Origin: Sphaerodactylus townsendi
Taxonomy: Eukaryota
Assembly (NCBI RefSeq): GCF_021028975.2
Contig: NC_059433.1
Location: 28,520,001-28,584,000, forward strand
Reading direction: 5' to 3'
DNA: 64,000 nt
Shown: positions 3,835-34,249 of the stretch, in pieces
Numbering within the stretch: the first letter of the stretch is position 1
Layout: each line of letters opens with the position of its first letter
Notes under the pieces: generated by a model
Database searches by the model: none
Seen by the model: only the letters and a program-made list of their open reading frames with translations
What the model was told of the DNA's origin: nothing
Made by a program: the position numbers and the translations under genes

Positions 3835-4042
3835 TATTGTCGAAGGCTTTCACAGCCGGAATCACTTAGGTGCTGTGTGGTTTCCGGGCTGTATGGCCGT
3901 GTTCTAGCAGCATTCTCTCCTGACGTTTTGCCTGCATCTGTGGCTGGCATCTTCTGAAGATGCCAGGCACAGATGCAGGCAAAACGTCAGGAGAGAATGC
4001 TGCTAGAACACGGCCATACAGCCCGGAAACCACACAGCACCC
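3835..4042. mobile_element. Penelope-like element terminus as a fold-back palindrome
   Basis: 86-bp arms 3869-3954 and 3956-4041 with one mismatch; gtcgaaggctttcacagccgg terminus; decayed hammerhead core CTGAAGA...AAAACGTC. Confidence 0.75.
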
Positions 4043-4457
4043 AAATATATTACATACTTTTTGTGGCCATAAAAATAAACAGATCACCAGTAGCCATTTT
4101 TTTCTTACCATAGATAGTCAGTTGAGCAATTATTTACAAGCCTGATTTGAGCAACGGTTTGAAAATGTAAAGTGTCAATCTTTTTCAGGTCACAAAAAAA
4201 GGCTAATTCATGATCTGTCTCTCAGTCATCCTACTGTATATTCCCCCCACCTTACCTCCAAACTGCTCAGCGTATACATGATTCTTCCCTTCTTGGTTAT
4301 ATCTGACAGTTACAAGGCAATTTATGTTTAGAGAGAGAAAGAGAGAGTCACCCAGCAAGCATCATGGCAGAGCAAGGACTCCAACCCAGGATTACCCAGT
4401 CCTAGTCTTCTGCTCTAACCACTATACATATATTCAGTGACAAAGCATTTACATTAC

Positions 4458-21075: not shown

Positions 21076-21631
21076 GGGATTGGGCGGTCTATAAATTTAA
21101 ATAATAATAAATAAATAATAATAAATAAATAAAACTTACTTACTAAATAAATAAATAATAAAATATGACTAACTAAATAAGTCTGTAAAGAATGGAGTGT
21201 TTGGGGTGTTGGAATGTCCTCGCTCTATTTTATTATTCTGGAACTTGTGTTGTTTTCTTCCATGCTTTACTGTTGGTCTATGAGCCCCTTGGGGATTGGG
21301 CGGTCTATAAATTTAAATAATAATAAATAAATAAATAAAACTTACTTACTAAATAAGTAAATAATAAAATATGACTAACTAAATAAGTCTGTAAAGAATG
21401 GAGTGTTTGGGGTGTTGGAATGTCCTCGCTCTATTTTATTATTCTGGAACTTGTGTTGTTTTCTTCCATGCTTTACTGTTGGTCTATGAGCCCTTTGGGG
21501 ATTGGGCGGTCTATAAATTTAAATAATAAATAAATAATACTAAATAAATAAATAAAACTTACTTACTAAATAAATAAATAATAAAATGTGACTAACTAAA
21601 TAAGTCTGTAAAGAATTGAGTGTTTGGGGTG
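20993..21631. repeat. Tandem triplication of a ~210-bp unit
   Basis: Units start with ttggaatgtcctcg at 20993, 21209 and 21415 (216, 206, 217 bp) and differ mainly in the aata tracts. Confidence 0.92.
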
Positions 21632-21875
21632 TTGTGTGGTTTCTGGGTTGTATGGCCATATTCTAGTAGCATTTTCTCCTGACGTTTCAGCTGCATCTGT
21701 GGCTGGCATCTTCAGAGATGGCATTTTCAGAGATCTGAAGAGATGGCTGAGATCTGAAGATGCCAACCACAGATGCAGGCGAAACGTCAGGAGAAAATGC
21801 TACTAGAACACGGCCATACAGCCCGGAAACCACATAACACCCCAGTGATTCCAGCTGTGAAAGCCTTCAACAATA
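21625..21875. mobile_element. Penelope-like fold-back remnant with hammerhead core
   Basis: Inverted arms homologous to 3835-4042; CTGAAGA-TGCC...GGC-GAAAC-GTC at 21754-21788. Confidence 0.75.
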
Positions 21876-30545: not shown

Positions 30546-32045
30546 AGTCCCGTGGCATAGTTGGGTGACCTTGACCTGGCCTCCAAAGTGGAGCTCAGAC
30601 CTCGAGAAGATTGAAACGAGTCAGCCATTTGCAGAGGTTTGAGAACTATGCTGGTTTGTTGGTCTTTACACTGTTAACATAAGCAAAAAATGTTTTTGTG
30701 TATGTGTGTAGATTCATCCGTTGTGAACTCTTGTTGCAAGCCACCCTAAGTGAAGAAGACGAGTCTGGATTTATACCCCATGTTTCTCCTCTGCTGTGAC
30801 TAGCTCAAGGTCACCCAGCTGGCATGGAGCGCACAAGCTAATTTAGTTCACCAGATAAGCCCCCACAGCTCAAGTGGCAGAGTAGGGAATCAAACCCAGT
30901 TCCCCAGATTAGAGTGCACCTGCTCTTAACCACTATACTACACTGGCACTGATTTCCCCCAAGTGTTGGGATCACTGCTGGTCTCAATGAAATGTCATGG
31001 GGGTTGTGTGTAAGCATCCAAACAATCAGTGCTATGCTGAAGTGTTACAGGCCCTCACCTTTTGAGGAGTTGTCCTGTTGTAGCAATGTATCATTATTAC
31101 TGTATTGTCCCCTTCCTCCTAGTAGCTCAGAACAGTGTACATACTCTACCACTTCTCTGATTCTGAGTTGCATAATGCTAACAGTCCTGTTGGTTAGGCC
31201 ATGTTGCAAAATTGCAGCTGATCCAAGATCACCAAAAGGGCATTGTGATTGAACAGGGATTTGAATCCGTGTGATGTGCTGGTTAGGAGAACAGTGATTC
31301 AGGTCCCAGTTTCCACCCTGTCAGGAAGCTCACTGGGTAACCTTGGACCAATCATTACTGTTTGACCCAACTATCTTAAGCTCAGATAAAAAAGTGGCAT
31401 TAATGTGCAATAATGAATGAGTTCAGCACCCGACTGGCATTTTTCAATGTGTTTTTGAGTGTTCAAAGTACATGATCTTTGGAAAATCTGAGGTGCAGAG
31501 AAAAAGGATCCCTCAACACTTCCAAACACCGTAAACATTTGTCTTTCTTTCTGCTTTAAAGAATTTGGGAGGAAATTTATTTTTCTCTTTTGATACAGGT
31601 TTTACGCTGATCATGTCCTTTCTCCCCAGCTCTATTGTGGAGGTGCAATCTTTTAATCAGTTTACTGTGGTTTGGTATTTGCTTTCTTTGCTGAAAAGGA
31701 ATGCAAATTGATGTTCATTGCTGGCATCTGAAATATGCATAAGAGCTTTGCTCACTTAACTAATGGCATATTTTCAGTGTATACCTATGAGCCTGTGCCT
31801 GCTCTAAAGCGTATCCACAATAATGCTAAGCCTTTTTGGATTTTCAAGATGTACTACCGTTATATGTTGTTACGTTTGTAACATTTTTTACAAAATCTTT
31901 GCTTCCATGGAGTCCTGCTGCCAGGAAGCAACAAACGAATAAATATTTTAAATTAGTAAGTGAACTTTGACATTCCAGTTAGATGGCATACAGAAAACCA
32001 GCATCACAGAAAGTAATTTCTGTTCTGTTCTGTCTTTGCTGCCAG

Positions 32046-32230
32046 ATGACTGTTCTTTCGGCCAGCCCTGGGAAAGTTGTTTGTGAAATGAAAGTGGAAG
32101 AAGAGCACACCAACCGAGGAGGGACTCTGCACGGAGGGTTGACAGCGACTCTTGTGGATGTCGTGTCAACGGCTGCTCTGATGTATACTGAAAGACAAGC
32201 ACCTGGAGTCAGTGTGGATATGAATATTAG
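32046..32230 (+). CDS. ACOT13: ACOT13 exon 2
   Basis: gctgccag|ATGACT...ATTAG|gtgtgt. 185 nt, hotdog-fold HTNRGGTLHGGLTATLVD motif. Confidence 0.97.
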
Positions 32231-32296
32231 GTGTGTACCTGAGAGACAAGATTGATTTCAGAGTTGGCTTTCATTTAATGTAACTTTGATTTTATG

Positions 32297-32523
32297 TATT
32301 GTCGAAGGCTTTCACAGCCGGAATCACTGGGGTGCTGTGTGGTTTCCGGACTGTATGGCCATGTTCTAGCAGCATTCTCGCCTTTTGGCCTCTGCTCCTG
32401 ACTTGCCAACAAAGAATAATAACGACCAACTTCCTAAATTGCTAAGATAAAGCAGAAGTAAGGCAAGTAGGAGAGAATGCTGCTAGAACACGGCCATACA
32501 GCCCGGAAACCACACAGCACCCC
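32297..32523. mobile_element. Penelope-like fold-back remnant with a captured central insert
   Basis: Arms homologous to 3835-4042; 12-bp flanking duplication tttgattttatg at 32285-32296 and 32525-32536. Confidence 0.8.
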
Positions 32524-34092
32524 ATTTGATTTTATGGTTTCATTTCTGGAGTGTGCCACGTATCAAAAAGAAATCTCCGTTTTGAAGTCATGGTTCTGAG
32601 TTACTGCTGGTGGCTGCTGTGTCTTTTAGATCATTCCTGATAACCTAACGCTTCAAAGCTTGTGCAAAATTTACTTTTGTCCCTGTTGTCTAAAATCTCT
32701 GTCCTGCTTATTGGGCTTCAGGGTACAGAGTTGGTTCAGTTACAGAAATAAATGGCATAGGATGGCGTTGCTGATCATTTTTGGTTACGTTTCAGTTTAA
32801 AGCATTTGATTAAAAAAAATAGATTGAATCACTTGCCTTACTTTTGCTTTGTCTTAGCAATTTAGGAAGTTGGTCATTATTATTCTTTGTTGGCAAGTCA
32901 GGAGCAGAGGCCAGAAGTGATTTGCTGATCAAGACTGCCCTGTAGAATCCGTAACTGAAACATTATTTCCCAAACCCTCCAAGCAACCTTCTGGAGAACC
33001 AAAGCAAACCATATATTGAATTGAGTAGCTGCTAAAAAAGAAAAGGTCAAAGGGCAATCACCGGGTCATTATTGGCCCATGAGGTGATGTCAGTTTCTGA
33101 CATTTACTAGACAGACTATGTTTTACGTGGTGGTTTGCCATTGCTTGCCCCCAGCAAGCTGGGTACTCATTTATTGAGCCCAGAGGGATAGAAGGTTGAC
33201 TTTGAGCCGGCTACAGGGAACCGACTTCCGTCGGGATCAAACTCATGTCATGAACTGAGCTTTGACTGCAGTACTTCAGCTTATCAATGGGGCTACGTAG
33301 CTGCAAACCCTTTCTTTTATTTAAATCTCATAAAATCTTAAATACCTGAGGAGTTTTTGCAGCATACATGTTTGTGAACCATCACAAAGTGCTGTGTTAA
33401 ATTGGGGGAGGGGAGATCTGTTTGAACAAGCTGTGTTCATATGACAGTAGAGGCCTTATTTAGCTGCATCAGGCAAACTTGACCCCCCCCCCCCCAACTC
33501 TAAAATATGTTACTATGGCACTTCCATTCAGTATTTATTGCAAGGAGATAAAGTTGGCATGTATAATTTGTGTTAAATTGCAAGTGGTGTTAAAATGTCC
33601 AGATTTGCCCCTTGTGGCGCGTAGACAGGAGGGACTGAGCTATATGTCCAATGTTCGAGTGGAAGGGCACTGCTGACATTTGAGGGCATGAATAACATTG
33701 GCAGATGAACAAATGAATGAGTAGATATGAGGACAGATCTTGGTTTGTTGCAGGCCCCGGTTGGAGACTGTCTTTGGGCAAGGAAAGGTTTGCCTCCCAT
33801 TGACTGTGAGAAGAGTGTCATTTTCCAGCATGGGTCGCTGGTTGTTAATGACGTGTTCAGCCAGTTTGAGCTGAAAAAAATATTTTAATGTTCTAAGTAA
33901 AATAATTTGCCCCTCTTGGACCATGTGGTAGGCTAGACTAAGAGTGGCTGACTCAAGGGTTGCTCGGTGAGCTACATGGCTGAATGGAGATCTGGTCTAT
34001 GTCCAGTCCTCTACCACACTGGCTCTAATTTATAACTGTAACATACAACCTCTTTTTAAAAAACTCTTCTTCCTCTATTCCTTGCATTTAAG

Positions 34093-34249
34093 CTATATGT
34101 CAGCAGCGAAGATTGGAGATGAAATCCTGATCACTGCCGAGGTTCTGAAGCAAGGGAAAAGCTTGGCATTTGCCAGTGTGGATTTAACAAGCAAGGCAAC
34201 TGGAAAGTTGATAGCCCAAGGAAGACATACGAAATTCCTGGGGAACTAA
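34093..34249 (+). CDS. ACOT13: ACOT13 exon 3
   Basis: catttaag|CTATATG...AACTAA. Encodes YMSAAKIGDEILITAEVLKQGKSLAFASVDLTSKATGKLIAQGRHTKFLGN*. Confidence 0.97.

Follow-up and report, generated by a model that had tools for sequence, protein, structure and literature searches.

An inverted copy of neighbouring intron DNA between Penelope arms that end at a predicted hammerhead cut in Sphaerodactylus townsendi

The locus described here bears on two questions: how Penelope-like elements (PLEs) complete their integration, and whether the minimal hammerheads they carry are active in vivo as self-cutting ribozymes. In PAc, the Poseidon element of Anolis carolinensis, the open reading frame (ORF) starts at stem II of the hammerhead and the cut falls 26 nt after the start codon, two reverse transcription (RT) starts about 30 nt apart give the tail, and both strands of an AT-rich target are cleaved and extended in vitro (PMC11167929). 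As far as the accessible parts of that paper describe PAc, the family analysed here is like it in these respects. According to Frangieh et al., the main substrate in vitro is uncut RNA and cleavage is dispensable there, and they saw no RNA reads ending at the cut, whereas here a minority of genomic copies end exactly there on both arms; local fillers are not described in the accessible parts of their paper (PMC11167929). Minimal PLE hammerheads are weak in vitro (PMC4209133).

Adineta Pen2a and Pen1 (PMC3846280) and the elements of Craig et al. (PMC8557442) resemble the present insertion in their head-to-head inverted copy, 31-bp tail on one side and target-site duplication (TSD), and in host DNA captured as spacers or between pLTRs. 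Unlike here, the palindromes are put down to self-priming and the captured DNA is not traced to the flank in the sections available to us. The “snap-back” and “extra template” 5’ junctions of R2 are similar in that the 3’ end of a full-length cDNA primes on cDNA or nearby target DNA before joining, but they involve one cDNA in an engineered system, as opposed to two cDNAs in a germline insertion with a donor about 300-390 nt from the cut (PMC11371274, consulted in part). L1 twin priming likewise keeps a discrete TSD through second-strand priming, closes the internal junction by end-joining and can leave templated genomic DNA at insertion sites, but its arms copy different parts of the RNA, whereas here both copy the same part and stop at the ribozyme site (PMC11702581, likewise in part). 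As far as these sources go, every ingredient is already known from L1 or R2, and PLEs are known to have inverted pLTRs, a tail and a TSD and to capture host DNA. The accessible part of a retrozyme preprint (bioRxiv 10.64898/2026.07.22.740005) added nothing further. In the open-access texts searched, neither Penelope copies that end at the ribozyme cut nor centres templated by the flank were described, and genomic evidence for Penelope ribozyme cutting was likewise not found.

Templated insertions made by Pol-theta are inverted or direct local copies with short microhomology; the present filler, with 87 nt from a distance of about 0.3-0.4 kb, is longer than most of them and comes from farther away from the break. 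The window, a stretch of 64,000 nt of S. townsendi DNA, contains the following features, with family positions counted from the predicted hammerhead cut as 0:

3835..4044, no strand assigned: reference family copy; its arms reach about -40, so that the hammerhead motif is included
21625..21875, no strand assigned: third family copy in the window; arm ends -37 and -36, 35-nt centre
32046..32230, plus strand: thioesterase exon (Pfam 4HBT, E 2e-4, translation and splice letters); intron GT at 32231
32285..32296, no strand assigned: left copy of the 12-bp target-site duplication; single copy in the X7 empty-site contig
32297..32383, minus strand: left arm, consisting of the tail 32297-32327 (31 nt) and 56 nt; family positions +86 to 0
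32382..32468, minus strand: filler, 87 nt (85 nt past a 2-nt overlap); inverted copy of 32831-32917
32469..32524, plus strand: tailless right arm, covering family positions 0 to +55
32525..32536, no strand assigned: right copy of the target-site duplication; perfect 12-bp match to the left copy
32831..32917, plus strand: donor; unique intron DNA that passes unbroken into the flanking sequence (organisms A, B and D)

The Penelope/Poseidon-type insertion comprises 228 bp (32297-32524), one base more than the original prediction, which had placed its end at 32523 and had correctly recognized a 12-bp flanking duplication; the two copies of the latter, at 32285-32296 and 32525-32536, are identical. 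As had also been proposed, its inverted arms, of 56 bp, align with those of the copy at 3835-4044. An inverted truncated copy with a tail of the 30-40 nt class on one end only, here 31 nt, and a TSD has the anatomy of a PLE insertion. The insertion itself is a non-coding stub without a hammerhead motif. Its centre (32382-32468) is the reverse complement of 32831-32917, lying 362 nt away, with 83 of 87 nt identical (E 3e-36 in the within-window comparison) and mismatches at 32385, 32423, 32448 and 32455, in agreement with the earlier description of an 87-nt inverted copy with four mismatches. The filler begins 152 nt into the intron of an ACOT13-like gene, with 32046-32230 as its exon 2; a further exon lies near 34217. 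Just beyond the donor, at about 33060-33200, lies another repeat, over which contig depth is high and reaches 13,000 in X1. The 35-nt centre of the copy at 21625-21875 appears by eye to be rearranged family sequence.

What the original prediction overlooked is that both arms terminate exactly at the predicted hammerhead cut, at 32383 and 32469. The last 2 nt of the left arm (CT) overlap the filler, giving a microhomology of 2 nt at the left junction, while the right arm adjoins the filler with a microhomology of 0.

The arm sequence runs on into an ORF with an RVT_1 domain (E 7e-13) at locus L161, where the ORF stretch examined had 544 aa, short of the C-terminus, and other family copies extending past the tail continue into the same RVT_1 ORF. 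The anatomy common with PAc, together with the RVT_1 match, suggests that the family is a Poseidon. The motif order in L161 (stem I, CUGAAGA, stem II, GAAAC-GUC, stem I) is that of a minimal type I hammerhead, and the ORF start coincides with stem II. The predicted cut, GUC/AGG (GTC/AGG in DNA), lies 29 nt from the A of the ATG, i.e. 26 nt after the start codon, which is the spacing found in PAc (PMC11167929). An Rfam search of the reference copy did not return a hammerhead among 19 weak matches, all of which were below threshold, hairpin-driven and of miRNA type. The family is abundant, with 2212 first-look candidates in the genome. One locus (G000:C4:158576344-158576738) forms a short tandem array with three tail-ORF junction matches at 182-nt spacing.

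The occurrence of an inverted local copy inside a Penelope palindrome was confirmed. A genome search with the 87-mer, which passes over very common words, found exactly two matches in 1.81 Gb, the filler and the donor, and masking with family sequence left the filler unmasked; the centre is therefore neither a dispersed repeat nor, as the original prediction had stated, Penelope sequence, and both of these origins are ruled out. Its local-match score of 75 compares with a maximum of 14 among 186 control flanks, so that the two genome matches, the score and an empty site in a relative all identify it as a unique copy of DNA near the break.

Contigs from six public runs of three studies were aligned to the locus. 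Two contigs of X4 (organism B), representing two centre alleles, join the filler to 17 nt of the right arm, and in X8 (organism D) one contig runs from the left arm (25 nt) into the filler (34 nt). These contigs fall below the bridging threshold of 31 letters per side but nonetheless reproduce the junctions of the window. The expected empty site was found in X7: in a contig of 461 nt with about 92% similarity, position 32284 is followed directly by 32525, supported by 255 letters on one side and 50 on the other, and the duplication is present in one copy. The contig stops short of the donor, so the prediction of an empty site with the donor copy alone is borne out for the insertion site. X7 is apparently a mixed sample, since near-identical and about 92%-alike contigs cover the same stretch over 32000-33200. 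Among the contigs of the six runs, both junctions were not seen on one contig in any lineage, and the contigs of X3, X5 and X7 did not include the centre, a gap that is uninformative in contigs. Those of X3 and X5 carry the right end of the element and the donor, and those of X1 and X8 cover the centre only partly, which would fit graph cleaning beside arms present at a depth of millions; polymorphism of the centre may also account for missing centre contigs. Contigs of organisms B and D show lineage-specific variants within the centre. Since contigs of two other organisms each carry one junction and the site is empty in a more distant relative, an assembly artefact, which had been named as a possible refutation, is unlikely. 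Copying ran from the donor to the centre, as the donor passes unbroken into the surrounding intron in organisms A, B and D and the TSD encloses the centre. At 32455/32844 the centre retains the ancestral letter and the donor is changed in organism A, with an equivalent change in the other copy of one X4 allele, a pattern attributable to parallel mutation or to past gene conversion between the inverted copies.

Arm ends at the predicted cut recur in the genome. Arms beginning at the cut behind two non-family letters gave 148 genome matches (107 and 41 in two samples), compared with 46, 58 and 72 matches of the same type at the control positions +4, -3 and +10. True truncations made up 79 of 95 cut-site loci, compared with 9/30, 15/29 and 26/29 at these controls, for which 30 loci each were examined that had been chosen for other positions with slightly different 26-28-mers. 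Four duplicate loci were dropped per sample, and 7 of the 107 and 11 of the 41 matches were not included. The single-arm enrichment is modest and arises partly from microhomology, as 19 of 59 partner arms have their ends between -39 and -44, an interval that offers pairing with AGGA. The partner-arm coincidence is the stronger signal: the partner also ended at the cut (+-1) in 17 of 59 loci, the window locus included, versus 1 of 38 controls (Fisher p=0.001), 17 being a lower bound because the count missed at least two double cut-site loci (L036 and L052). In the second sample this applied to 8 of 44 loci, and pooling both samples without the window locus gave p=0.003. Filler-free CCT/AGG joins were found at ten loci (7 in the first sample, 3 in the second), and family microhomology explains none of them. 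Symmetric joins were also seen at +10 (6/20, five of them overlapping by 2-5 nt), so symmetry alone is not special.

Cut-site copies are a small minority of the family: cut-site ends were absent among 33 other background arms, and 740 kb of background flanks with 35 arms yielded no further example. Ordinary arms in these flanks and in the window copies at 3835-4044 and 21625-21875 mostly end at -36 to -46 (24/35), a much bigger hot spot than the cut, which possibly represents the 5’ end of the RNA or a self-complementary join. At L056, L172, L174, L219 and L039 the target duplications enclose a single-arm insert of 55-90 nt that begins at an RT start and stops exactly at the cut; those at L056, L172 and L219 are without AGGA-type microhomology.

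The proposed scan of other copies for centres matching flanking DNA was also productive. The filler test used the 123 of 183 loci for which a TSD could be called, the other 60 being left out, and 7 of 28 non-family segments of at least 10 nt matched their own flank better than all 186 control flanks. The second sample added one of four (L231), bringing the local fillers to 8 of 32; L192, whose score of 12 was level with the control maximum, was not scored as local. Three of these loci have the same design as the window locus, with cut-site arms and a copy from 0.6-1.2 kb: L036 and L197 carry 16-nt inverted copies from 1.2 and 0.6 kb away, and in L231 the filler repeats, in direct orientation, 99 nt of a repeat at a distance of 0.7 kb. 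As the L231 donor is a repeat, its local origin rests on the best score and on a junction reaching beyond the repeat. The inverted copy attached to the cut-site arm of L212 takes in flank and cDNA as one piece, so the template was likely DNA; the locus (G000:C10:547401 region) contains a 406-nt inverted duplication of 126 nt of flank and the first cDNA, closed by the cut-site arm. Locally templated fillers also occur at L139 and L148, the latter with a perfect 26-nt direct copy from 0.6 kb, although their arms are not at the cut. Local fillers derive from both sides and in both orientations, and the single-arm inserts L177 and L151 contain copies of immediately adjacent flank. The window filler is the longest unique-sequence filler between two arms among those tested.

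Sequence of the downstream Penelope ORF, in sense orientation, lies ahead of the cut-site arms at L043, L059, L165 and L200, as from a template jump or a circular RNA. At L191, L079, L094, L123, L144 and L152 the arms adjoin long C-rich or G-rich runs, L191 including an array of 16-nt period longer than 2.5 kb that is a satellite or an assembly artefact.

We judge the window insertion to be a real scar of insertion time, and it is likely that a single event produced it, in which twin-primed RT on ribozyme-cleaved RNA was followed by copying of local DNA and joining of the ends. What is observed is the anatomy, with arms that end at the cut, the unoccupied site in a relative and the recurrence of such arms at other loci; from this we infer the following steps. 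A 12-nt staggered cut of the target would allow both strands to prime RT on ribozyme-cleaved element RNA, with the tail end (+86) as the start of one cDNA and the inner start (+55) as that of the other, which match the two RT starts reported for PAc. Both cDNAs would run off the cleaved 5’ end at position 0, and as their 3’ ends would be non-complementary, end-joining would be needed. Most simply, the right cDNA would fold back on its own exposed flank strand at 32831 and be extended to 32917, after which its last AG could pair with the CT of the left cDNA, closing the insertion; in a mirror alternative, the left end would prime on a 2-nt match. The polymerase may have been Pol-theta or the RT of the element. 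Of the two origins that had been offered, a template switch at insertion is thus favoured by the cut-site ends and their recurrence, and a later break of the palindrome is less favoured. As both arms end at the cut and this double ending recurs without filler, the hammerhead cores were most likely absent from the template RNA, and the suggestion that the patch had removed them is not supported. Since the centre consists of unique flank DNA, the two arms do not stem from a simple fold-back of one cDNA. The divergences between the arms (3/56) and between filler and donor (4/87), next to 17 letters in 511 between organisms A and B, would fit a single event before the split of A, B and D, if weakly, as the former comprise only three and four differences.

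Alternatively, an ordinary palindrome may have been inserted whose centre later broke as a cruciform or hairpin, the gap being patched from nearby DNA with deletion of the hammerhead cores. Long palindromes are fragile, symmetric losses are seen at +10, and local fillers are also present in copies with arms off the cut (L139, L148). We nevertheless consider a later break unlikely, because a DNA break has no reason to choose the cut at both ends, filler-free double cut-site joins recur, the filler is not younger than the arms by mismatch count, and the junctions are common to organisms A, B and D. A related possibility, to which we give little credence, is that the template to which the RT jumped from the cleaved 5’ end at insertion was nascent RNA of the host intron and not DNA. 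On the left cDNA strand the filler is antisense to the host transcript, as expected from sense pre-mRNA, though the chance of this is 1 in 2; the cut-site copies L043, L165 and L200 carry filler from the downstream Penelope ORF, and R2 switches templates and captures U6 according to the accessible part of that work (PMC11371274). Such a jump is at odds with L212, which needs a DNA template across flank and cDNA, and with local fillers from both sides and in both orientations; moreover, the donor is not an abundant RNA yet lies within about 1 kb, which makes DNA the simpler template.

The third alternative differs from the preferred reading of twin-primed RT on cleaved RNA in one step only: the arm ends would be set by DNA or RNA structure or by microhomology (stem I, AGGA/TCCT) rather than by cleavage, and the filler would be ordinary end-joining. 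AGGA accounts for many single cut-site joins, and ribozyme activity is low in the literature (PMC4209133 and, in its accessible parts, PMC11167929). Further points against the preferred reading are that the cut is predicted from the motif, which Rfam did not recognize, that Frangieh et al. saw no reads ending there, and that microhomology at the filler is 2 nt on one side and none on the other. The ten blunt CCT/AGG joins and the single-arm inserts from the RT start to the cut (L056, L172, L219), all lacking such microhomology, make this explanation similarly doubtful. Finally, that the structure is an assembly artefact or a dispersed repeat is extremely improbable: centre contigs are absent in X3 and X5 and the support comes from contigs rather than long reads, but against this stand the restriction to two genome matches, the four mismatches between filler and donor, and the lineage-specific centre variants and junction contigs in organisms B and D.

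The original prediction of an 87-bp double-stranded RNA stem in the pre-mRNA is upheld by folding in so far as centre and donor pair in a duplex of predicted -153 kcal/mol, which prevails in the full fold with 85 pairs. It would compete, however, with an arm-arm stem (predicted -106 kcal/mol) that crosses it and that, in a shorter nascent transcript, is predicted to form alone and hence first. The predicted intron dsRNA is probably inconsequential in a genome where the family is abundant. The locus is a dead intronic scar, and its value lies mainly in being a clean record of how Penelope insertions close.

Extended to the family, we favour, with somewhat more confidence than doubt, a model of germline cleavage by Penelope hammerheads, in which the cut RNA serves as template at both ends of one double-strand cut. 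The repair that closes the two cDNAs at the target could copy DNA or nascent host RNA lying no more than about 1 kb away, over a length of about 100 nt at most, and head-to-head palindromes would be products of twin-primed end-joining rather than self-primed fold-backs. The model predicts a simple in vitro result with PAc. If it is true, the cut-site arms would show ribozyme cutting in living cells, with copies like the window insertion providing a countable genomic read-out, and unique flank DNA between the arms would prove that these palindromes are twin-primed products and not self-primed fold-backs.
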